Source of the DNA: Nitrospirota bacterium
GTDB taxonomy: Bacteria > Nitrospirota > UBA9217
Length of the DNA: 64,000 nucleotides
Direction: 5' to 3'
Assembly (NCBI GenBank): GCA_963749655.1
Contig: CAVVOB010000024.1
Span: forward strand, 156,926-220,925
The notes beneath the pieces are model-generated. The model ran no database searches and was not told the origin of the DNA. It saw only the letters and a list, made by a program, of their open reading frames with translations. This document shows, one piece after another, positions 129-14,365 of this stretch (the stretch's first letter is position 1; every line of letters begins with the position of its first letter). The translations under genes were made by a program, and so were the position numbers.

Positions 129-314
129 ATGGCAAACCCAAAACACAGACATTCCAAGTCCCGCAGGGACAAGCGACGCACGGAAAAACAAAAACTCATG
201 GCCCCGAACCTTGCCGTATGCCCGCAATGTCAGGAGGTCAAGAAGCCCCATCATGCCTGCCTGTCATGCGGAACCTATAACGGCCGCGAGGTCGTGACTG
301 TTCAGCAGATCTAA
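129..314 (+). CDS. rpmF: 50S ribosomal protein L32 (Zn-ribbon form)
   Basis: MANPKHRHSKSRRDKRR, CPQC...HHACLSCGTY; AGGAG upstream. Confidence 0.97.
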   Translation: MANPKHRHSKSRRDKRRTEKQKLMAPNLAVCPQCQEVKKPHHACLSCGTYNGREVVTVQQI

Positions 315-397: not shown

Positions 398-1411
398 ATG
401 AAGATTGCCGTTGATGCGATGGGGGGGGACAACGCGCCGCAAGCCATCGTCGCCGGAGCGGTGCAGGCGGCGAAGGAATTCGGCGTCGGCATCATCCTGG
501 TGGGCATCGAGCAGGTTGTTCTCGAAGAACTGGCCAGACACCAGCAGGCAAAAACGCTTCCGATCGAAGTCAGGAACGCCACGGAAGTGGTGGATATGCT
601 CGACTCCCCTGCCACGGTCTTCCGCCGGAAAAAGAACTCCTCCATCCGGGTGGCCAATGATCTCGTTAAAAGCGGCGAGGCGGTTGCCGTCATCAGCGCG
701 GGGCATACCGGGGCTGCAATGGCCACCTCCCTGTTCGTGCTCGGTCCGGTGGAAGGAGTGGAGCGCCCTGCGATTGCGACGTTCATGCCTTCGCTTCGGG
801 GTACGTCCCTCATCCTGGATATGGGTGCAAACGTGGACTGCAAGCCGAACCATCTGCTGCAGTTCGCTATCATGGGTGATGTCTACGCCAAATATCTGCT
901 GAAGATCGCGAATCCCCGCGTGGGCCTGCTGTCCATCGGAGAGGAAGAGACGAAGGGAAATGAGCTGACGAAGGAAGCTTTCAAGCTCCTGACGGAGACC
1001 TCTCTCAACTTCATCGGAAATGTCGAGGGACGGGACGTCATGTCGGGCAAAGCGGACGTTATCGTCTGCGATGGTTTCATCGGCAATGTCGTGTTGAAGG
1101 TCTCGGAAGCCGTCGCTGAAACCGTGGGGCTCTTCCTGAAGGAGGACATCGAGAAAAGCCTCATCAGGAAACTCGGCTATCTGCTCGTGCGGCCGGCCTT
1201 CCGTAATCTGAAGCGCCGCGTCGACTACGCGGAATACGGCGGCGCGCCGCTTGTCGGCATCAACGGCATCAGCATCATCAGCCACGGACGGTCCTCGGAC
1301 CGGGCCATCAAGAATGCCGTACGGGTAGCCGCCGATCTCGCAAAGAGCGAGGTCAACAAACACATACACGAGGACATTCAAAAGAATATGGAGCTTGCCA
1401 AAACCAAATGA
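398..1411 (+). CDS. plsX: phosphate acyltransferase PlsX
   Basis: MKIAVDAMGGDNAP, LDMGANVD, VCDGFIGNV, SHGRS motifs. Confidence 0.97.
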   Translation: MKIAVDAMGGDNAPQAIVAGAVQAAKEFGVGIILVGIEQVVLEELARHQQAKTLPIEVRNATEVVDMLDSPATVFRRKKNSSIRVANDLVKSGEAVAVISAGHTGAAMATSLFVLGPVEGVERPAIATFMPSLRGTSLILDMGANVDCKPNHLLQFAIMGDVYAKYLLKIANPRVGLLSIGEEETKGNELTKEAFKLLTETSLNFIGNVEGRDVMSGKADVIVCDGFIGNVVLKVSEAVAETVGLFLKEDIEKSLIRKLGYLLVRPAFRNLKRRVDYAEYGGAPLVGINGISIISHGRSSDRAIKNAVRVAADLAKSEVNKHIHEDIQKNMELAKTK

Positions 1412-2388
1412 TCCATGCGCGAATTACAGGAACAGGTTCCTATGTACCGAAAAAGATCATCACGAATCAGGACCTGGAAAAACTCGTTGACACGAGCGAT
1501 CAATGGATCATCGAGCGGACCGGCATCAAGGAACGCAGGATAGCGGAAAAAGGGCAGACCACCTCGGACCTGGCCTTCGAGGCAAGCAAAAAGGCCCTCA
1601 AGGCAGCCGGTCTCGGACCGGAGGAACTGGACCTCATCCTGGTCGCGACGATGACTCCGGACATGATTCTGCCGAGCGTAAGCTGCGTGCTCCAGGAAAA
1701 ACTAGGAGCCCGAAAGGCGGCTTCCTTCGATCTCTATGCCGCCTGTTCCGGCTTTATCTACGGAATGTCCGTAGCGAACGCTTTCATCAAGGCCGACCTG
1801 TATAAAAACATCCTGCTGGTCGGCGCCGAAGTCCTGTCCCGGTTCACGGACTGGGAAGACCGGACCACCTGCATACTCTTCGGGGACGGAGCGGGCGCTG
1901 CAGTGATCCAGCGCCAGTCCGGCAAACGGGGCATTCTTTCGACGCACCTGCATTCCGACGGATCGCTCGGCGATCTGATCCACGTTCCCGCCGGCGGAGC
2001 CCAGCACCCGGCATCGCACGACACCATCCGCAAACGGATGCACTTCATCAAGATGAAGGGCAATGAGACCTTCAAGGCGGCTGTGCGGGCTCTTGAGGAC
2101 GTGGTTGAGGAAGCGTTGGAGCACAACAAGGTAAAACCGGAGGAGATCGATTTCATGGTCCCGCACCAGGCCAATCTGCGGATCATCCAGGCCATGGCGC
2201 AGCGCCTGAACATGCCCATGGAAAAGGTCGTGCTCACGCTGCCCAAGTACGGCAATACCTCTGCGGCCTCGATCCCCATGGCCCTGGATGAAGCGGTCCG
2301 GGACGGCAGGATCAAGGACAATCACCTCCTCCTGTTCGAGGCCTTCGGCGGCGGCCTGACCTGGGCATCGGCGCTGGTAAGATGGTGA
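1408..2388 (+). CDS. fabH: 3-oxoacyl-ACP synthase III
   Basis: AACSGF, PHQAN, YGNTSAAS, FGGGLTW catalytic motifs; ATGA overlap with plsX. Confidence 0.97.
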   Translation: MIHARITGTGSYVPKKIITNQDLEKLVDTSDQWIIERTGIKERRIAEKGQTTSDLAFEASKKALKAAGLGPEELDLILVATMTPDMILPSVSCVLQEKLGARKAASFDLYAACSGFIYGMSVANAFIKADLYKNILLVGAEVLSRFTDWEDRTTCILFGDGAGAAVIQRQSGKRGILSTHLHSDGSLGDLIHVPAGGAQHPASHDTIRKRMHFIKMKGNETFKAAVRALEDVVEEALEHNKVKPEEIDFMVPHQANLRIIQAMAQRLNMPMEKVVLTLPKYGNTSAASIPMALDEAVRDGRIKDNHLLLFEAFGGGLTWASALVRW

Positions 2389-2410
2389 AACAGGACAAAC
2401 ACCACGTGGC

Positions 2411-2518
2411 AAGCATCAAATTTCAAACAAACTCCAGATACGAAATGTAAAACGTTTCAGAGAGTGAAATTCCGTATTTAGAATTTATTTGTGATTTGTT
2501 ATTTGGAATTTGAAATTT
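2411..2518. repeat. AT-rich imperfect inverted repeat built of heptamer-like units (aaatttc / ttggaat)
   Basis: A-rich left arm (caaatttcaaacaaactcc) and complementary T-rich right arm (gatttgttatttggaatttgaaattt). Confidence 0.55.
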
Positions 2519-2537
2519 TCTGTAATCGGAGGATGTC

Positions 2538-3694
2538 ATGGACTATTTGCTGACAGAGGATCAGATCATGATACGCGATCTCGCACGGCAGATCGCGGTC
2601 GAGAAGATCGTGCCGGTGCGCGCAGAACTGGACGAACAGAACAAGTTTCCGACGGACATCATGAAGGCCATGGCCCAGGCGGACCTCTTCGGCATCTACA
2701 TTCCCGAAGAATACGGCGGCCTCGGCAAAAAGAGCCTCGATCTTTATATCGCCATCGAAGAAATATCGAAGGCCTGCGTCGGAGTTTCCACCAGCTACGC
2801 AGCCAATGCCCTCGGCACCTACCCCATCCTGCTCCACGGTTCCGATGCCCAGAAAAAGAAGTATCTGCCCGACATCGCGTCGGGAAAAAACCTCGCGGCA
2901 TTCGGACTGACCGAAGCGAACGCCGGCAGCGACGCCAGCGGCGTACAGACCACGGCCAAGCTCGACGGAAACGAGTATGTTGCTGAACGGCACGAAGCAA
3001 TGGATCACGAACGGCGGCGAGGCGGAGATATACACCGTCATCGCCATCACGGACAAGTCAAAGGGCGCCCGCGGCGCCTCTGCTTTATCGTGGAAAAAGG
3101 TACGCCCGGCTTCACCTTCGGGAAGAAAGAAAACAAGATGGGCATCCGCGCATCGTCCACGACCGAACTCATCTTCAACAACTGCCGCATTCCCAAGGAA
3201 AACCTGATCGCCAAGGAAGGCCTGGGATTCATCGTGGCCATGAAGACCCTCGACTGCTCCCGTGCAGGAGTGGGCGCCCAGGGCGTCGGCGTGGCCCAGG
3301 GCGCCATCGACGAGGCATCAAGTTCGCCAAGGGCAGGGTCCAGTTCGGCCAGCCCATCACCTCATTCCAGGCCATTCAGCACATGCTTGCGGACATGCAG
3401 ACCCAGACCGAGGCGGCCCGCGCCCTGGTCTATTCCGTGGCCCGCATGATGGACAGCGGAGCCAAGGACTTCTCCCGTGCTTCTGCCATGGCAAAGCTCT
3501 TCGCCACCGACACCGCCATGAAGGTGACCACCGACGCCGTCCAGATCATGGGCGGTTCGGGCTATATGAAAGAGTACCCCGTCGAAAAAATGATGCGCGA
3601 CGCCAAGATCCTCCAGATCTATGAGGGAACGAACCAGATCCAGCGCAACGTCATCGCCCTCGACATGATCAAGGAAGCAACGAGACAGAAATAG
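2538..3694 (+). CDS. acyl-CoA dehydrogenase, butyryl-CoA dehydrogenase-like (frameshifts, probably read errors)
   Basis: IPEEYGG, FGLTEANAGSDA, LNGTKQWITNG, KMGIRASST, MRDAKILQIYEGTNQIQR spread across ORFs 2538-3449, 2977-3207, 3383-3694. Confidence 0.93.
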
Positions 3695-3784
3695 CAGATA
3701 CCGAAGCGGTGAGGCGTAAGGAGTAAGGTGAACAAAAGCCTTCGATCGTTTCCGTCTCCCGGTCCTAATGATTCGGAGAAACCC

Positions 3785-4573
3785 ATGAACATCATCGTTC
3801 TTGTCAAACAGGTTCCGGACACATCGGAAGTAAAGATCAACCGGGAGACGAACACGCTCATCCGCGACGGCGTCCCGAGCATCATCAACCCCTTCGATAT
3901 GTACGCCATCGAAGAAGCGCTCCGTCTGCGCGAACAACACGGCGGCAAGGTGACGGCCGTGACCATGGGGCCGCCCCAGGCGGCCGAAGCGCTGAAAGAG
4001 GCCGTGGCCATGGGCGTGGACGACGTCGTGCTGCTGTCCGACCGGCGCTTTTGCCGGCGCCGATACCTGGGCCACCTCCTATACCCTTTCGCAGGGCATC
4101 AAGAAGATCGGCGAGTTACGACCTCATTATTGCGGGCAAGCAGGCCATCGACGGCGACACGGCGCAGGTCGGCCCGGAGACCGCGGACATGCTCGGCATT
4201 CCCTTCGTCGCCTATATAAGGAAGATCGAGCAGGTCGAACGGGAAGAAGATGGTCGTGGAACGCATGATGGACGAAGGATACGATGTGGTGGAGTCCTCC
4301 CTCCCGGCGCTGATAACCGTGGTCAAAGAGATCAACCAGCCGCGGCTGCCCTCGCTGAAGGGCAAAATGAAGGCCAAAAACCTCAAGGTCACGACCTGGA
4401 ACGCAAAGATATCGACGCTGACGAGAACATGCTCGGCCTCAAGGGTTCTCCCACGAAGGTCGTCAGGATATTCCCGCCGGCTCCGCGCGGCCAGCGGGAG
4501 ATTCTGTCCGGCACGATCGAAGAGCAGGTCGAGCAGGTCGTGAAGAAGTTGAAAGAGCAATCGTTTATTCTAA
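3785..4573 (+). CDS. etfB: electron transfer flavoprotein beta subunit (frameshifted)
   Basis: MNIIVLVKQVPDT, INPFDMYAIEEA, GKQAIDGDTAQVGP, INQPRLPS, GSPTKV across frames. Confidence 0.93.
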
Positions 4574-4661
4574 TGCAGGATTCAAGTGAAGCAGGATGTG
4601 ATCATGTCGTCCTTCCCGGCACGGCTTCTGGATTCGGTTGCATCTTTTCAAGGAGCTTCCC

Positions 4662-5855
4662 GTGAGCGTTCAAGTCATTTCCGACACCTGCACCGGCTGC
4701 GAGACCTGTGTCTCCGCCTGCCCCTTCGGCGCCATCGAGATGCGCGACGGCAAGGCCTTCATCACGGAAGGCTGCACCCTGTGCGGTGCCTGCATCGAGG
4801 CCTGCGAATTCAAGGCCATCGAGCGGACCGGCGAAGAAGCCGTGCCGCGGCAAAGGACCTTTCGGCGTTCAAAGGCGTCTGGGTCTTTGCAGAACAGCAC
4901 AAGGGAGAGCATCTCCAGCGTCGCGCTTGAGCTCCTCGGAGAAGGAAGAAAACTGGCCGACAAGCGCAAAACAAAGCTTTCAGCCGTCTTCATCGGCCAC
5001 GGCATCAAGGACAAGGCAAAGGACCTCATCGCCTACGGGGCTGACATCGTCTATCTCGCCGATGACCCGGCGCTCAAGGATTTTAACGACGATTCCTACG
5101 CCGCCGTCCTGACCACGCTTGCAACGCAGCACAAACCCGAGATCATCCTCGCCGGCGCAACGGCGATCGGCCGTTCGTTCTTTCCCAAGGTCGCCGCTAA
5201 GCTCTATACCGGACTTACGGCCGACTGCACCGTGCTCGATATCGACGCCGAGACCGGCCACCTGCACCAGACCCGTCCGGCTTTCGGCGGCAATATCATG
5301 GCCACCATCGTCACGCCGAACCACCGGCCCCAGATGGCGACGGTCAGGCACAAGGTCATGAAACCGTCCGTCCGCGACGATTCCCGGACCGGCGATATCA
5401 TCACGATCTCATACAATCAGTCGGGCAGCCTGCGCACGAAGGTCCTCAAGACCGTAGAAGAACTGGGCGAGACCGTGAATATCTGCGAAGCCGACATCAT
5501 CGTCGCCGGAGGCCGCGGCCTCGGCAGCGCCAAGAACTTCCAGCTGATCGAAGAGCTCGCCAAGGTCCTCGGCGGCGCTGTCGCGGCAACGCGCGGCGCA
5601 GTTGATGAAGGATGGATCCCCTATCCTCACCAGGTGGGACAGACCGGCAAGACCGTCTGCCCCAAGCTCTACATCGCCTGCGGCATCTCCGGCGCAATCC
5701 AGCATGTAGCCGGCATGCAGTCCTCTGAAGTGATCGTCGCCATCAACAAAGACCCCGACGCGCCCATCTTCAACGTCGCCACTTACGGCATCGTCGGCGA
5801 CGTCCACGAGGTCCTTCCCATCATGATCAAGAAGATCAAGGAAATGCGGGGATAA
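4662..5855 (+). CDS. etfA: electron transfer flavoprotein alpha subunit with N-terminal 2[4Fe-4S] ferredoxin domain
   Basis: GTG start after AGGAG; [12 protein letters not shown] / [11 protein letters not shown]; [30 protein letters not shown]; short compensated frameshift ~4850-4910. Confidence 0.94.
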
Positions 5856-5856
5856 C

Positions 5857-6793
5857 ATGAAAATCGCCTTCCTTTTCCCGGCCAGGGCTCTCAGTACGCG
5901 GGCATGGCCAAGGAGTTCATCGAACACTTCCACGGAATCCAAGGAGGTCTTCGACAGTGCCAGCCGACGCACTCGGCTATCGACCTTGCGGACTGTGCAT
6001 GCACGGCCCTGTCGAGAAGCTGAACCTCACGGAGAACACCCAGCCTGCGATCCTCGCTGCGAGCATCGCCATCCTGATGCCCCTCGAGCGGAGGGGGCTT
6101 TCGGCATCGGCGGCAGCCGGCCACAGCCTCGGCGAGTATACGGCAATAACGGCGGTGGGCGGTTTCGACTTCAAGGACGCGGTTTCACTGGTCCGGAAGC
6201 GCGGCAGTACATGCAGGAGGCCGTTCCCGAGGGAACCGGCCTCATGGCGGCCATCCTCGGCATGGACCGCCAGGACGTAGAAAAAACTTGCCTTGAAGCG
6301 TCCAAAAATGGTATAGTTGCCCCTGCAAATTACAACACCCCGGGCCAGATCGTCATCGCAGGCGAGAAAAAAGCTGTTGAAAAGGCCATGGAACTCGCCA
6401 AAGTCCGGGGGAGCAAAAAAAGTCGTCCCGCTTGCGGTCAGCGTGCCATCACACTGCTCCTTGATGACAACAGGCCGGAGAGCGGCTTGTCGCGGGAACT
6501 CGAGAACGTCACCATCAGCGACCTCCGCGTCCCGATCGTAAACAACGCCGACGCAAAGTTTCTGAGCAAAGCCTCGGAGCTGAGACCGTCGCTCATCAGG
6601 CAGATCAGCTCTCCGCTCTTCTGGGAAGATTCCATCACGGCAATGGTCGCAGGACGGCTTCGACACCTTCATCGAGATCGGCCCGGGCAAGGTGCTCTCG
6701 GGCCTGGTGAAGCGGATCGCCAAGGACGCCCAGGTGCTGAACGTGGAAGATCAAAAGAGCATGAACGATACGCTCAGCGCTCTCGGATTATAA
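5857..6793 (+). CDS. fabD: malonyl-CoA-ACP transacylase (frameshifted)
   Basis: MKIAFLFPG, TENTQPA, GHSLGEY, ANYNTPGQIV, EIGPGKVLSGL across frames. Confidence 0.93.
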
Positions 6794-6814
6794 CAACGGG
6801 ATCAGGAGCTTGAA

Positions 6815-7870
<1,056 letters not shown>

Positions 7871-8139
7871 GCATCAGATAATCAAGAATACGGACGGCGG
7901 GAGAGGGTTCGAAGCATAAGCAACGGCCTTTCATCAGCGCTCCCTCCTCTGTGTTCTGCACCACTTCCAAAAGCCAGAAGACCTCTCCCGCATGCACAGG
8001 GACCGGTTTTTTGGCTTTTCGGATTTTTTCTCCGTAAAAAAGTGAGGCCCCGATTTTTGTCGGCCGGCCGGCGCTGTTCGTATATATTTTTCATCCGTCA
8101 GGCTTCCCTGAACGGAACCCAGGCAGGAGGTATCCTCTT

Positions 8140-9383
8140 TTGAAGAAAAGAGTTGTTGTCACCGGCGTCGGGATGATCACTCCCGTCGGTCTCGATACGG
8201 AAACAAGCTGGGACAGGCCTCGATCAACGGCAAATCCGGCATCGGCCCGATCACCCAGTTCGATGATAAGACCATCCCGACCCAGATCGCGGGCGAGATC
8301 CACGGATTCGAGCCGGAAAAGTACATCGAGCCCAAAGAGATAAAAAAGATGGACCGGTTCATCCATCTGGCCATCGCGGCAAGCCAGATGGCCATGGACA
8401 TGTCCGGTCTCAAGATCACACCGGAGAACGCCGACCGCGTCGGCGTCATCGTCAGCGCGGGCATCGGCGGCCTGCCGGCCATCGAGAAATACCACAAGGT
8501 CTATCTCGAACGGGGCATCCGCAAGATAACGCCCTTCTTCATCCCCATGCTGATCATCAACGAATCGGCGGGCATGATATCGATCCGCTACGGCGCCAAA
8601 GGCCCCAACATCTGCGTCGTCACGGCCTGCGCCACGGGGACCCATTCGATCGGCGACGCCTTCAAGTGGATCCAGCGCGGCGACGCTGATGCCATGATCG
8701 CCGGCGGCACGGAATCCTGCATCTGCCCGACCGGCGTAGGCGGTTTCAACGCCATGAAGGCGCTTTCAACACGAAACGACGAGCCGGAGCGCGCGAGCCG
8801 TCCCTTCGATGCGGAACGCGACGGATTCATCATGGGTGAGGGCTCCGGCGTCGTCATCCTCGAGGAAATGGAGTTCGCGCTGAAACGCGGCGCGCGCATC
8901 TATGCCGAGGTTGTCGGCTACGGGGCCACGGGCGACGCCTATCACATTACGTCGCCGGCGCCGAACGGCGAAGGAGCCGCGCGGTGCATGAAGATGGCGA
9001 TCAAGGACGCGGGAATCGCTCCGACGGAGATGGGCTACATCAACGCCCACGGCACATCCACCAAGTTCGGCGACGAGCTCGAAACAACGGCCATCAAGAC
9101 CGTGTTCGGCGACTTCGCTTACAAGATACCGGTCAGTTCCACGAAATCCATGACCGGCCATCTGCTCGGCGCGGCCGGCGGCGTGGAAGCGGTCATCACG
9201 GTCCTCGCGCTTGACCGCGGGATGCTGCCTCCGACGATCAATCTCGACAACCCTGATCCGGAGTGCGACCTTGATTATATCCCGAATAAAGCGCGGCACA
9301 CGCAGGTGGACGTTGCCATGTCGAACTCCTTCGGCTTCGGCGGTACGAATGCCTGCCTGGTCTTCAAAAGATTCCGGAGCTAA
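8140..9383 (+). CDS. fabF: 3-oxoacyl-ACP synthase II (frameshift ~8220)
   Basis: [40 protein letters not shown]. Confidence 0.96.
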
Positions 9384-9384
9384 G

Positions 9385-10077
9385 ATGCCGCTCCTATCGG
9401 ACATTCAACTGCGGATCAGCCACCGTTTCCGCGACCAGGAGCTGCTCGAACGCGCCCTGACGCACAAGTCCTATGCTAATGAGAACCGGGTCCCTGCTCA
9501 CAACGAACGGCTCGAGTTCCTGGGCGACGCCGTTCTCAGCCTCATCGTCAGCGAACACCTGATGAAAAACTGTCCGGACTCGACCGAGGGGGACCTCTCC
9601 CGCCTCCGGGCTGCCGTCGTGAGCGAGCCGGCGCTTGCCGCTGTTGCGCGCGACATCGGCCTCGGCAGTTATCTCCTGCTCGGCAAAGGAGAGGAACAGA
9701 CCGGCGGCAGAGACAAGGATTCCCTGCTCGCGAACTGCCTTGAAGCGCTCATCGCATCCGTCTACCTCGATGGGGGCCTGCCTGTCGCCGAAGCCCTGGT
9801 CATCCGCCTTTTCGAAAAAACGGTCCAAAGGACCTGCACCTCCCGGGGCACCCTCGACTACAAAACGGAGCTCCAGGAGCTGAGTCAGGAGCGCATGAAA
9901 CAGCTCCCTGAATACCGGATCGTGTCCGAAACCGGTCCTGACCATCAGAAGCAGTTCACCGTAGAGCTCTCCATCAACAGTGAAATCTGCGGCCGCGGCA
10001 CAGGCAGGAGTAAAAAGGATGCGGAGCAGAAAGCGGCCAGGGAAGCGCTGAAAAAACTGACTGGCCGGGAAGCGTGA
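9385..10077 (+). CDS. rnc: ribonuclease III
   Basis: ALTHKS, NERLEFLGDAVL, dsRBD DYKTELQE...SKKDAEQKAA. Confidence 0.96.
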   Translation: MPLLSDIQLRISHRFRDQELLERALTHKSYANENRVPAHNERLEFLGDAVLSLIVSEHLMKNCPDSTEGDLSRLRAAVVSEPALAAVARDIGLGSYLLLGKGEEQTGGRDKDSLLANCLEALIASVYLDGGLPVAEALVIRLFEKTVQRTCTSRGTLDYKTELQELSQERMKQLPEYRIVSETGPDHQKQFTVELSINSEICGRGTGRSKKDAEQKAAREALKKLTGREA

Positions 10078-10175: not shown

Positions 10176-11189
10176 ATGATCATCCCATTCTTCATCACCC
10201 ACGCCGGATGTCCGCACCAATGTGTGTTCTGCAACCAGAAGAATATCGTCGGCCAATATGAACCGGAAACGCCTGCAGCCGTATCCCATAAAATAGACGC
10301 TTATCTGGGACAACACAGCTCGCCGGAGTCCGTTTACGTTGCCTTCTACGGTGGAACGTTTACGGCCCTTCCGCTGGAGATGCAAAACTCCTACCTCGAA
10401 TCCGTCATGCCGTTCATCCGCGACGGCCGCGTCCGGAGCACCAGGGTTTCCACCCGTCCTGATTGCCTGAGCCGTGAAAAAATTCAGTTTCTCAAGGCCG
10501 GTCATGTGGCCGTCGTGGAGCTGGGCATCCAGTCCATGGACGATCGTGTCCTTGAGCTTTCCGGCCGCGGCCACACCGCAGAGGATGCGCGGAATGCCGT
10601 GGCCTTGTTAAAGGAATTCGGCATGGGCGTCGGCTTGCAGCTCATGCCCGGACTGCCCGGTGATTCTGAAGTTCTGTTCTCGGAAACCGTTGACAAAGTC
10701 CTTCAGCTCAAGCCTGATGCTGTCCGTCTTTATCCCGCGGTCGTTATCAAAGGCACCCCGCTCGAGGAGCTGTACCTCGCGCGGCGATACATTCCGCTGA
10801 CGCTGGAACAGGCCGTTGCCGTCTGCCGGGATGCCCTGGCGAAATTCAGGCGAGCCGGCATCCCGGTCATCCGCATGGGACTGCAGCCGTGCGTTGAGCT
10901 GGAAACGCCGGGTACGGTCCTTGACGGTCCGTTCCATCCTGCCTTTGGCCAGCTTGTGGAATCTGCTCTCTTCCTGGAGAACATGCGGATTGAAGTGCGC
11001 AGCCGGGAAAAATACGTTGGCAACACCGCTGTTTTTCTGGTGCACCCCAGGGATATCTCTACAGCAACAGGGCAGCGGCGTTCAAATATCGATGCGTTGA
11101 GGAAAGAGTTCGGATTTCAGGCTGTGCGTATCAGGGGAGACTGTGTCGTTCCGGCCGGGGGGACGCCTATCCTTCTTTCAGTTTCTTGA
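10176..11189 (+). CDS. Elp3/YhcC-like radical SAM protein
   Basis: CPHQCVFC, FYGGTFT, STRPD, VELGIQS, GPFHPAF; commonly follows rnc. Confidence 0.88.
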   Translation: MIIPFFITHAGCPHQCVFCNQKNIVGQYEPETPAAVSHKIDAYLGQHSSPESVYVAFYGGTFTALPLEMQNSYLESVMPFIRDGRVRSTRVSTRPDCLSREKIQFLKAGHVAVVELGIQSMDDRVLELSGRGHTAEDARNAVALLKEFGMGVGLQLMPGLPGDSEVLFSETVDKVLQLKPDAVRLYPAVVIKGTPLEELYLARRYIPLTLEQAVAVCRDALAKFRRAGIPVIRMGLQPCVELETPGTVLDGPFHPAFGQLVESALFLENMRIEVRSREKYVGNTAVFLVHPRDISTATGQRRSNIDALRKEFGFQAVRIRGDCVVPAGGTPILLSVS

Positions 11190-12111: not shown

Positions 12112-12467
12112 GGGAAATTACCTAACAGCGTTTTCGCAGTCCCTTATTCCCTGATGAACACCGCCGGAAATACATGCCCCGTGAAACATCATCGCTTTTC
12201 AACGTTACAAATCTGCACCCGTTCGGTCGGTGGAGCCCCCTCCGGCATCCCGACTTGCCGGGACTAAAATTGACGCGACTTCCCACCTGCACCCGGCGTT
12301 TACGAGTGCGGGTGCACGGAGTGCCAGGTGGAACTGCGAACTCGCGGGATTGCAAAAACATCATCCGGCCGGCAACAAATCGATGCGACGTTCTCACCGT
12401 TTTCATCGCAATAGCCTGACACCGTGCGATGTTCCCGGAATCCTGGCAATACAGAAACGTAACCGGT

Positions 12468-13312
12468 CTAATCCATGAAGACATAGTCCGTGTCGTGGTC
12501 CGTAACCATTCCCGGTCCGGTCTGATCGGGAATGAGAGGAAGAAGCTACCTTGTACGGATAGCGGGACAGGCCTGCAAGCTGTTCGGGAATGCCCCTTTT
12601 CCAGGCGTGCCCGATGCCGGCCAGCACGACCATGGTTCTTCCCGGATTTTTTTCCAGATACTCCATGATATGCCACGCCATGGTTTTGTCCCACACCATC
12701 TGTGCTTCGCAGAAGTTCAGGAATGTTTTGTCGCTCTTCGGCGAATGGCCAGCATAGGCTTTTCTGATGAACTCCATGTAGGTGGGATCGACGTTGCAGC
12801 TGATGCCTTGCGGGAGCTGACTTTTCTGGCGCGCATTCAGGGACGCGAATCCCCTCCTCGCAATGGCGTCCGCAATATCGTCAGGTATATTCAAACCTAT
12901 CACCGGAATCCTGTATTGCCGAAGGTACTCGAATATATCGCGATAGAGCGGCCATGGTTCACTCCAGTTGTCGTAATAGGCAGGAAGAAAATCATGGGTC
13001 TTCAGCGAGCCGTCGATCCATTGGGCCAGGACTTTATTATTCTCCGAACGGAACATCTCAATCCCCACAGCCAGCGGCGTGCCCGCCTTATGAAGAGCCC
13101 GGATGACGGCGAGCTCGTCGCGGTGGTGATCCGCGATGTCATGCACCTCGCCGACGAAAACGATCTTTGCCAGTTCGCACATCGCTGATCATGTTATCGA
13201 AAGGGATCTTCTTCCCGTCGCTTGCGCGAAACACCCTCTCATCGGGGACCAGCCAGGCGGCAAGGGCAAAACAGACGAATACGGACAGAATAATGAACGC
13301 TTTTATCTTCAT
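12468..13312 (-). CDS. ChaN (EreA-like) family exported protein (frameshifted)
   Basis: Signal-like N-terminus; VFVGEVHD, VGIEMF, AQMVWDKTMA, VLAGIGH. Confidence 0.8.
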
Positions 13313-13501
13313 ACTGTAATTGTTACGCCTCTTTGCAGCAATGTCAAGGATGAGATATGATGAATGCATGATCACCATCACGCGCTCACCAAAGAGACAT
13401 CATTGAACATCCTCATGGAGTGAGCTAGAATCTAGAGAAGGGAAAAAACCGAGTCGATCGTGCGGCGTCGGACAGCGTGCCGCACGGACAAGGGAGGATA
13501 T

Positions 13502-14365
13502 ATGAAAATAGGTTTCGTCGGACTTGGCATCATGGGCAGCCGCATGGCCGCCAATCTGCAAAAGAAAGGACATGAGCTGGTAGTCTATAACCGGACCCGG
13601 CAGAAGGCCGATGCGCTCGTGGCCAACGGAGCCCTCTGGGCCCCGACGCCGGCGGACCTGGCTAAACAGGTTACGGTCCTCATTACCATGCTTTCCAAAC
13701 CCGATGCCGTGGCTGAAGCGGCCCTTCTCGGCAAGTACGGATTCCTGAACCATCTTGGAGACAACGCCCTCTGGATCGATTGCAGCACCGTGAATCCCTC
13801 ATTCTCCCGGCTCATGGCCGCCGAAGCCAGGCAACGCAAGGTCAGGTTCATCGACGCGCCGGTAGGGGGTTCGAAGGGACCTGCCGAACAGGGACAGCTG
13901 CTCTTTTTCGTGGGTGGGGAAAAAAAAGACGTTGACGAGGTCCGGCCGCTGTTCGAAGCAATGGGGAAGGCGGTTTTTCACCTGGGCGGCAACGGCATGG
14001 GAACGGCTATGAAAATGGTGAACAACATCGTTCTTGCACAGGCAATGGCCGCCTTTTCCGAGGCGCTGGTCCTCGGGGAATCGCTCGGACTGACCAGAGA
14101 AACGCTGTTCAACACGCTCCTGAACTCTCCTGTTACGGCACCGTTCCTCGCTTTCAAGAGGACAAAACTTGAACAGGGAAACTTCGACGCCGAGTTCCCG
14201 CTCCTGTGGATGCATAAGGACCTGCAGCTTGCAGCCGATACCGCCTATGAAACCGGCGCGGTCCTGCCCCTGGCAAGCGCGACGAAGGAAATCTACGGGA
14301 TGGCGGTCAAAAACGGACTCGGAGAACAGGATTTTTCAGCGGTGTTCAAAGTATTGAGCAAATAG
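13502..14365 (+). CDS. 3-hydroxyisobutyrate dehydrogenase-family NAD(P) oxidoreductase
   Basis: GFVGLGIMGSRMA, DAPVGGS, MKMVNN, MHKDL. Confidence 0.92.
   Translation: MKIGFVGLGIMGSRMAANLQKKGHELVVYNRTRQKADALVANGALWAPTPADLAKQVTVLITMLSKPDAVAEAALLGKYGFLNHLGDNALWIDCSTVNPSFSRLMAAEARQRKVRFIDAPVGGSKGPAEQGQLLFFVGGEKKDVDEVRPLFEAMGKAVFHLGGNGMGTAMKMVNNIVLAQAMAAFSEALVLGESLGLTRETLFNTLLNSPVTAPFLAFKRTKLEQGNFDAEFPLLWMHKDLQLAADTAYETGAVLPLASATKEIYGMAVKNGLGEQDFSAVFKVLSK

Follow-up and report, generated by a model that had tools for sequence, protein, structure and literature searches.

Which enzyme reduces enoyl-acyl carrier protein (enoyl-ACP) in type II fatty acid synthesis (FAS II) when none of the usual reductases is found in a genome assembly? 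The question is raised by a 64,000-nucleotide stretch of a Nitrospirota contig (CAVVOB010000024.1, positions 156,926 to 220,925; assembly GCA_963749655.1), called the window here, whose fatty acid synthesis operon carries between fabH and fabD the genes for an acyl-CoA dehydrogenase (ACAD) and for the two subunits of an electron-transferring flavoprotein, EtfB and EtfA. Enoyl reduction in FAS II is a major antibiotic target and a step known for non-homologous replacement (FabI, FabL, FabV and FabK). The initial annotation had found no enoyl-ACP reductase of these classes in the window, and this holds for the whole source assembly (G000; 4.27 Mb in 39 contigs, 86.6% complete, 5.8% contamination), which yielded no FabI, FabK or FabL and also no FabV, the last in a search that lacked a positive control. 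From the observed gene content, subfamily affinities, linkage to fab genes and a distribution complementary to that of known reductases, we consider it on balance probable that the trio serves this Thermodesulfovibrionia lineage as its FAS II enoyl reductase, in the form of an enoyl-ACP reductase of the Bcd/CarCDE type. More tentatively, a bifurcating, ACP-level enoyl reductase of this kind may serve fatty acid synthesis in many strict anaerobes, including Thermodesulfovibrionia, Desulfobulbaceae, other Thermodesulfobacteriota, Margulisiibacteriota, Saganbacteria, Omnitrophota and Hyd24-12.

Pfam matches and piecewise tblastn searches bore out the gene order first read from the window, rpmF-plsX-fabH-ACAD-etfB-etfA-fabD-fabG-acpP-fabF-rnc-radical SAM, with all cluster genes co-directional, as claimed, on the + strand. 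The reported spacing was also exact, a single base (5856) separating the etfA stop (TAA, 5853-5855) from the fabD ATG at 5857. Order and spacing thus stood; what had been missed is that the ACAD, etfB, fabD, fabG and fabF frames are interrupted. Protein-level comparisons used the intact orthologs of a relative, G002. The cluster comprises:

129..314, +, rpmF (ribosomal protein L32), the cluster's first gene; Pfam Ribosomal_L32p, 9.4e-23
398..1411, +, plsX, intact; Pfam FA_synthesis, 2.2e-116; 84% identity to the G002 ortholog
1408..2388, +, fabH (ketoacyl-ACP synthase (KAS) III), intact; Pfam ACP_syn_III and ACP_syn_III_C; 90% identity to G002
2538..3694, +, ACAD (Bcd/CarC-like), proposed catalytic enoyl-thioester reductase subunit; broken by about three frame changes; the first piece matches Pfam Acyl-CoA_dh_N and _M
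3785..4665, +, etfB (small/beta subunit, bifurcating type); about four frame changes; Pfam ETF on two pieces
4638..5855, +, etfA (large/alpha subunit), intact, 405 aa; Pfam Fer4 (residues 12-60), ETF and ETF_alpha
5857..6793, +, fabD (malonyl-CoA:ACP transacylase); at least five frame changes; piecewise 63-89% identity to G002 FabD
6815..7556, +, fabG (3-oxoacyl-ACP reductase); one frame change near 7288; Pfam adh_short
7628..7870, +, acpP; Pfam PP-binding; 92.5% identity to the G002 ACP
8104..9383, +, fabF (KAS II), start approximate; one frame change near 8216; Pfam ketoacyl-synt and Ketoacyl-synt_C
9385..10077, +, rnc (RNase III), end of the conserved block; Pfam Ribonucleas_3_3 and dsrm
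10176..11189, +, radical SAM gene, outside the module; Pfam Radical_SAM and Radical_SAM_C; follows rnc in the relatives' full operons

The fabH start overlaps the plsX stop, and a scan for promoters and terminators gave counts no different from those of shuffled sequence, with no excess of terminator-like sites within the cluster (14 against 12.3 expected). Pieces of the ACAD gene in three frames cover residues 1-385 of the intact G002 ortholog. For etfB, Pfam ETF beta pieces span 3728-4665; homology to the ortholog stops at 4569, the open frame continues to 4665, and the pieces cover G002 EtfB residues 1-261. As a single open reading frame fabD gave no Pfam match and was recognized piecewise by tblastn with the intact ortholog. 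The N terminus of EtfA is a 2x[4Fe-4S] ferredoxin domain with two CxxCxxCxxxC motifs.

Judged by similarity to solved and modelled families, the trio is a CarCDE/Bcd-EtfAB-type complex. The best match of EtfA in the Protein Data Bank (PDB), over its full length and including the ferredoxin domain, was CarE (6FAH_A, 1.8e-116), followed by the bifurcating Etfs 4KPU, 5OL2, 7KOE and 7QH2. Likewise, the top five PDB matches of G002 EtfB were all bifurcating Etfs (266 bits for the best, 6FAH_B, and 209 for the fifth, 4KPU_B), whereas canonical ETFs scored 66-91 bits, and its DGDTAQVGP stretch, reportedly a bifurcating-Etf signature (Garcia Costas et al. 2017), aligns identically with CarD and 5OL2_B. 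G002 ACAD matched Clostridioides difficile Bcd best (5OL2_C, 2.3e-124, 418 bits) and CarC less closely (4.7e-92, 312 bits). Its E363 (in IYEGTNQ), presumably the catalytic base as in the literature on medium- and short-chain acyl-CoA dehydrogenases (MCAD and SCAD), was invariant in alignments of 8 (A1) and 22 (A3) sequences. The trio therefore combines an ACAD fold bearing the YEGT glutamate, an EtfB that falls in the bifurcating subgroup by similarity only, and an EtfA whose ETF_alpha FAD domain is accompanied at the N terminus by a 2x[4Fe-4S] domain, as in the CarE/LctC subtype, and it presumably bifurcates electrons. In NCBIfam, the nearest models were those of clostridial acryloyl-CoA reductase subunits (AcrABC; NF042972, NF042970 and NF042971), all below cut-off (473.7 versus 640, 336.9 versus 600 and 242.4 versus 475), placing the trio outside these families.

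Comparison with the two best-understood relatives sharpens this assignment. CarCDE, the caffeyl-CoA reductase-Etf of Acetobacterium woodii (6FAH), has the same three components, including the N-terminal 2x[4Fe-4S] domain of EtfA, but the ACAD of the window type is nearer to Bcd than to CarC, and the context is a FAS II operon rather than caffeate respiration, with enoyl-ACP as the proposed substrate. Bcd-EtfAB (C. difficile 5OL2; Acidaminococcus fermentans 4L1F/4KPU) offers the closest solved ACAD, an Etf of the bifurcating subgroup and the same chemistry, 2-enoyl thioester reduction. It differs in that the trio's EtfA has the additional ferredoxin domain, in that two relatives (G036 and G027) carry the trio without thiolase, crotonase or Hbd partners, and in that the trio's ACAD is one residue shorter than both Bcd structures in a stretch that we take, from MCAD and very-long-chain acyl-CoA dehydrogenase (VLCAD) structures, to be the floor of the acyl pocket. 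Among the best 120 of 136 ACAD homologs longer than the query were ACAD-Etf and ACAD-rubredoxin-ETF fusions, at no more than 53% identity, which say nothing about the clade itself.

The arrangement is conserved among relatives. It recurs in six of the ten relatives' loci that we fetched (L021-L024, L027 and L028), intact in four genera of the source's own family (G002, G001, G024 and G019; family f1) and in a second family, f3 (G026 and G035), at about 60-73% identity. Two further loci (L029 and L030) contain parts of the operon, and L025 and L026 retain only etfB-etfA-fabD. An EtfA ortholog was present in 28 of 41 relatives. The initial annotation had placed the trio in a slot that fabK occupies elsewhere, and relatives without the module confirm that position between fabH and fabD: G025 reads plsX-fabH-fabK-fabD-fabG-acpP-fabF, with a FabK of 500.6 bits, above cut-off, and G137 reads plsX-fabH-SDR-fabD-fabG-acpP-fabF, where the best NCBIfam match of the short-chain dehydrogenase/reductase (SDR) is FabL. 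A single operon slot in this phylum is thus filled by any of three unrelated gene sets. The trio shares its location with established FAS II enoyl-ACP reductases and no homology with FabI, FabL, FabV or FabK, its members belonging to the ACAD and ETF families. Like the trio, FabK (TIGR03151) is a flavoprotein (FMN) reductase, of the same step and in the identical slot in G025, but it is an NMO-type TIM barrel rather than an ACAD fold with an Etf; it uses NAD(P)H directly and conserves no energy.

The G137 slot SDR (L158:7553-8362, +; 269 aa) scored 161 bits against a FabL cut-off of 328 and is probably a divergent FabL/FabI-like enoyl-ACP reductase missed by standard models. The FabL model NF005975 was rejected as a discriminator, as FabG paralogs (about 180 bits) outscore this protein, and for that reason the protein itself served as query. 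Its family, f16, is one genus of 12 genomes without FabI, FabK or the module, in which the one operon examined is that of G137.

The distribution was then tallied in 151 Nitrospirota genomes, namely G000 and 150 others with a completeness of 90% or more, a draw that shares genomes with the first sample of 41. EtfA orthologs occurred in 86 genomes and ACAD orthologs in 83, in the same 14 families. FabI occurred in 48, all in seven other families in which every genome had it (48/48), and in none of the module families. FabK exceeded its cut-off in four genomes, none with the module, so that none of the 86 module genomes had FabI or FabK above cut-off. In the first sample, FabI (E 1e-58 or better) was found in 10 genomes and FabK above cut-off in three, again none with the module; FabL above cut-off was found in none of the 41. 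One genome, G011, gave no match to the module, FabI, FabK or FabG, and its fab region seems to be unassembled. The anti-correlation proposed for the module and known reductases therefore held within Nitrospirota, where the module and FabI occupy disjoint families, and was only partial outside the phylum.

Several candidates for a hidden reductase were rejected. The SDR genes at G000:C30 and G002:C2:1224385 each proved to be a second FabG gene next to a KAS, not FabI or FabL; an SDR on G000:C23 is pteridine-reductase-like and was rejected likewise; and an NMO match on G000:C13, of 42 bits within a frame of 490 aa, is too weak to count as FabK.

Two small genomes, both 100% complete (G036, on one contig, and G027), bear on the substrate. 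Each encodes exactly one ACAD, 81% identical to the operon-encoded one; the ACAD gene is relocated and etfB-etfA-fabD are kept together, preceded in G036 by acpS. Neither genome has ECH_1 (crotonase), a real 3HCDH, Thiolase_C (thiolase) or HGD-D (2-hydroxyacyl-CoA dehydratase), and neither has an ortholog of the FabL-like slot SDR when the G137 protein is the query. Both encode FabZ. These genomes have no visible source of enoyl-CoA, and their FAS II is complete but for its reductase. Because no such source is visible, roles in fermentation, β-oxidation or primer synthesis are disfavoured, which weakens the alternative that the initial annotation had entertained, that the trio makes acyl-CoA primers for FabH.

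The association with fab genes extends well beyond Nitrospirota. A pattern scan with the ACAD retrieved 592 relatives, and in the neighbourhoods of the best 80 (64-90% identity) the ACAD was flanked by fab genes at 49 loci, from Nitrospirota, Thermodesulfobacteriota/'Deltaproteobacteria', Margulisiibacteriota, Saganbacteria, Omnitrophota, Ratteibacteria and Hyd24-12 (phyla and genera beyond the census are named from record titles). In a tree of 89 ACADs (the 80 closest loci and nine Nitrospirota relatives), these formed one clade apart from other Nitrospirota ACADs (SH-aLRT support 100; outgroup branches long). A wider census covered 50 genomes, 37 with fab-linked loci and 13 without, four non-linked loci having been dropped. 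FabK above cut-off occurred in one of the 50, a Clostridia genome that is not fab-linked, and FabI in five, of which three are Bacillota genomes that are likewise not fab-linked and two are fab-linked genomes. Neither FabI nor a FabK-like match was found in 19 of the 37 fab-linked genomes, or in 14 of the 25 of these with etfBA in the cluster.

Some clusters in this set have the order plsX-ACAD-fabD-fabG-acpP-fabF without adjacent etfBA (L096, L125, L126, L132, L135, L137, L138 and L142, from metagenome-assembled genomes (MAGs) of Thermodesulfobacteriota/'delta proteobacterium'); seven of their genomes, all but that of L096, were in the census, and five of these carry FabK-like genes of 259-310 bits. 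Two Bacillota MAGs (L098 and L116) have ACAD-etfB-etfA trios of the same clade (68-70% identity) alone among unrelated genes; these neighbours are not crt/hbd/thl butyrate clusters and speak neither for nor against a Bcd role. Across six Bacillota genomes, FabI was present in three and FabK in one.

How could such a trio work in FAS II? The enoyl/acyl couple lies at about -10 mV and NADH at -320 mV. In the proposed scheme, the trio takes the place that FabI, FabK or the FabL-like SDR holds in other Nitrospirota. NADH would reduce the bifurcating FAD of EtfB, from which one electron would pass through the FAD of EtfA to that of ACAD, two rounds reducing trans-2-enoyl-ACP to acyl-ACP, and the other, low-potential electron would reach ferredoxin by way of the two [4Fe-4S] clusters at the N terminus of EtfA. 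The balance per elongation cycle would be two NADH spent and one reduced ferredoxin gained. We propose this mechanism because of the homology with Bcd-EtfAB and CarCDE, whose bifurcation it follows as set out in PMC6085437. Synteny, complementarity within Nitrospirota and replacement in the slot all support the initial annotation's interpretation of a candidate bifurcating enoyl-ACP reductase, with an activity predicted from sequence.

The step from CoA to ACP as carrier, with enoyl-ACP rather than enoyl-CoA as the substrate, is a prediction, as are the acceptance of all chain lengths and the reduction of ferredoxin. At the ACAD positions of Arg17 and Arg28, 88% and 98% of 56 fab-linked members have a basic residue, where most or all of six Bacillota members have Ala, and the net charge is -0.9 in fab-linked ACADs versus -3.7 in Bacillota. 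These arginines, the less negative charge and the pocket stretch shorter by one residue are leads only for ACP as the carrier. A predicted complex of ACAD and ACP (two ACAD, two FAD and ACP; alignments A3 and A2), run without controls, scored 0.00 and is evidence neither way. ACADs that act on carrier proteins are known: MbtN, an acyl-ACP dehydrogenase, and RedW/PigA, prolyl-PCP dehydrogenases, demonstrate that the fold takes phosphopantetheine-tethered substrates. They are distant relatives only (RedW 258 bits versus a cut-off of 650; MbtN 85 versus 700), oxidise their substrates and are not coupled to a bifurcating Etf.

A number of observations weigh against assigning the trio to enoyl-ACP. 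Its ACAD carries no sign of ACP specificity and matches a genuine butyryl-CoA dehydrogenase at 418 bits; the presumed pocket helix differs from that of Bcd by one residue only, although an enoyl reductase for fatty acid synthesis must accept C4 to C16-18; and no ACP fusion was found among the best 120 of the 136 longer homologs. The absence of known reductases covers FabI, FabK, FabL and FabV, medium-chain dehydrogenase/reductase (MDR)-type and old yellow enzyme (OYE)-type proteins not having been searched. For FabV (PF12241), searches of one, 41 and 50 genomes gave no match, but neither did any of 14 control genomes, so that its absence is not established. FabK-like genes below cut-off (164-258 bits) occur in four module genomes (G010, G018, G162 and G174). 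The split between 86 module and 48 FabI genomes probably reflects few independent events, since the families on each side make up few clades. Beyond Nitrospirota the ACAD-fab association is general and the complementarity partial: the two fab-linked genomes with FabI are exceptions to it, NMO/FabK-like matches (178-358 bits) occur in 17 of the 37 fab-linked genomes, and FabK-like proteins (259-310 bits) in five of 11 genomes whose fab-linked ACAD has no adjacent etfBA. Most module genomes also encode a FabX-like FMN/[4Fe-4S] protein, in principle a ferredoxin-driven enoyl-ACP reductase. Finally, the window's own copy of the operon is frame-broken.

The FabX-like protein leads to the main rival explanation, which we regard as unlikely: that an unrecognised enzyme, either this protein driven by reduced ferredoxin or a reductase of the MDR or OYE type, performs the step, leaving to the trio another fab-linked task such as acyl-ACP dehydrogenation toward unsaturated or modified fatty acids, or electron transfer between a FAS flavoenzyme and ferredoxin. 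The protein, an NMO-family member of about 370 aa scoring about 100 bits on the FabK model, occurs in most relatives and matches Helicobacter pylori FabX structures (PDB 7E1Q and relatives) over its full length at 216 bits. In Margulisiibacteriota, an NMO-like gene with a C-terminal 4-Cys motif, closer to FabX than to FabK, lies between acpP and fabF in the same fab operon as the trio (L109:14197-15171, +), and this rival also draws on the NMO/FabK-like matches outside Nitrospirota and on the action of ACAD-family enzymes on carrier-bound acyl groups, with weak NCBIfam matches to RedW, PigA and MbtN. However, the FabX-like protein does not track the missing reductase, because it is present in genomes with FabK or FabI (G025, G028 and G037) and was not found in G000, G005, G014 or G017; in the 100%-complete genome of G002, all that was found is a shorter relative (278 aa, 75 bits) and an enoyl-reductase-like domain in a 2792-aa frame. 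ACAD and EtfA, by contrast, follow the reductase gap family by family. H. pylori FabX, moreover, is described in PMC8626469 as a decanoyl-ACP dehydrogenase/isomerase in which a [4Fe-4S] domain stands where FabK has its NAD(P)H site and for which oxygen is the only known electron acceptor. It resembles the proposed reductase as a flavoenzyme interconverting acyl-ACP and trans-2-enoyl-ACP, with homologs that co-occur with the module in many anaerobes, but it has another fold, acts oxidatively in the making of unsaturated fatty acids and is not the window's protein. Less probable still is that the trio forms a conventional complex of the Bcd-EtfAB or acryloyl-CoA reductase-like kind, which would turn over short enoyl- or acyl-CoA in fermentation, β-oxidation or the supply of FabH primers, with fab linkage reflecting only co-regulation of lipid metabolism. 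Its top similarities are indeed to butyryl-CoA dehydrogenase and NCBIfam AcrC (473.7 bits), close Bacillota relatives (68-72% identity) occur as ACAD-etfBA trios that have no fab genes around them, and G002 and G024 possess FadB-like genes and thiolases, companions able to make crotonyl-CoA. Genome papers took such genes as Bcd/Etf (PMC6349859) or as butyrate oxidation (PMC5812927). Against this stand the sub-threshold scores on all three Acr models and the two small genomes, which keep the trio without thiolase, crotonase, hydroxyacyl-CoA dehydrogenase or 2-hydroxyacyl-CoA dehydratase. The ACAD is also the best conserved of the set across families (81% identity versus 57-59% for EtfA), the fab-type ACAD is the sole ACAD in G024, G027, G035 and G036, neither of the two Bacillota trios examined lies in a crt/hbd/thl cluster, and an acyl-CoA role leaves the absence of known enoyl-ACP reductases in the 86 module genomes unexplained.

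A different kind of alternative is that the window's copy is a decayed, non-functional operon whose frame breaks are real mutations, which we consider very improbable. At least 15 frame changes fall in five genes within 6.8 kb (2538-9383): near 2981, 3100-3138 and 3300 in the ACAD gene, near 4050, 4108, 4240 and 4406 in etfB, near 5872, 5931, 6215, 6430-6487 and 6653 in fabD, and at the sites listed above in fabG and fabF, while plsX, fabH, etfA, acpP, rnc and the radical SAM gene have unbroken frames, which speaks for decay. The breaks are nevertheless most likely assembly indels, as judged from the relatives' intact operons (in G002, locus L021, the products are an ACAD of 385 aa, EtfB of 261 aa, EtfA of 405 aa and FabD of 310 aa) and from the fact that the broken genes include essential ones whose pieces mostly keep 63-94% identity to intact orthologs; exceptions are fabD residues 1-36 and 171-203, with 44-52% identity or two competing frames. 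Many breaks coincide with short homopolymers, the assembly has the limited completeness and the contamination given above, and the broken fabD, fabG and fabF have no second housekeeping copy, the sole other FabG/KAS/FabZ set being a separate cluster on contig C30. Of the public runs listed, only two contain the sampled words, at a share of 5-6%; both are DNA runs and none is an RNA run. Open-frame coverage was rejected as a measure of indels, giving no discrimination at this G+C content. Further genes of this assembly, which appears indel-prone, may be broken likewise.

A full-text literature search, with most subscription journals outside its coverage, found no description of an ACAD/Etf enoyl-ACP reductase. 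Comparable genes have been read otherwise: a 'putative Bcd' beside EtfAB in Margulisbacteria and Saganbacteria was taken as Bcd/Etf with no link to FAS (PMC6349859), and Nitrospirae genes were interpreted as butyrate β-oxidation (PMC5812927). If the trio does act on enoyl-ACP, it would represent a further non-homologous class of enoyl-ACP reductase, presumably not hit by inhibitors of FabI or FabK, and the first bifurcating enzyme with an ACP-bound substrate, and it would supply the 'missing' reductase for whole lineages of environmentally important anaerobes. Biosynthesis would then recover energy that FabI, FabK, FabL and FabV dissipate: the large fall in free energy between NADH and the enoyl thioester would be spent on reducing ferredoxin in anabolism, a real gain for sulfate reducers and for other organisms near the thermodynamic limit. 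Many 'Bcd/EtfAB' calls in metagenomes that were taken as butyrate fermentation or β-oxidation would need re-reading. The idea is directly testable, as the module is found in genera with cultured members: Thermodesulfovibrio, Desulfobulbus, Desulfopila and Thermodesulfatator.

Further observations concern related genes. FabX-like NMO proteins are encoded in strictly anaerobic lineages at L153:2846-3949 (-) and L154:3204-4322 (-) as well as at L109, where the Etf/ferredoxin system encoded beside the gene is a candidate electron acceptor in anaerobes. In a second lipid-type cluster (L035, G000:C30:108476-112168; L068, G002:C2:1222000-1227500), a KAS is encoded together with a methyltransferase, a protein of the FabZ/FabA fold and a FabG that scores above or near the TIGR01830 cut-off; this cluster may be devoted to making one special lipid or polyketide. 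Outside the window, an ETF_alpha-like stretch (G000:C3:12566-12946; 36-44% identity to EtfA residues of about 281-401) sits in giant open frames of about 2640-2690 aa that have counterparts in at least 12 relatives and are conserved across the family. Downstream of the operon, and unrelated to the finding, lie genes for a ChaN-type haem-binding protein (12403-13182, -) and a member of the 3-hydroxyisobutyrate/6-phosphogluconate-dehydrogenase family (13460-14365, +).

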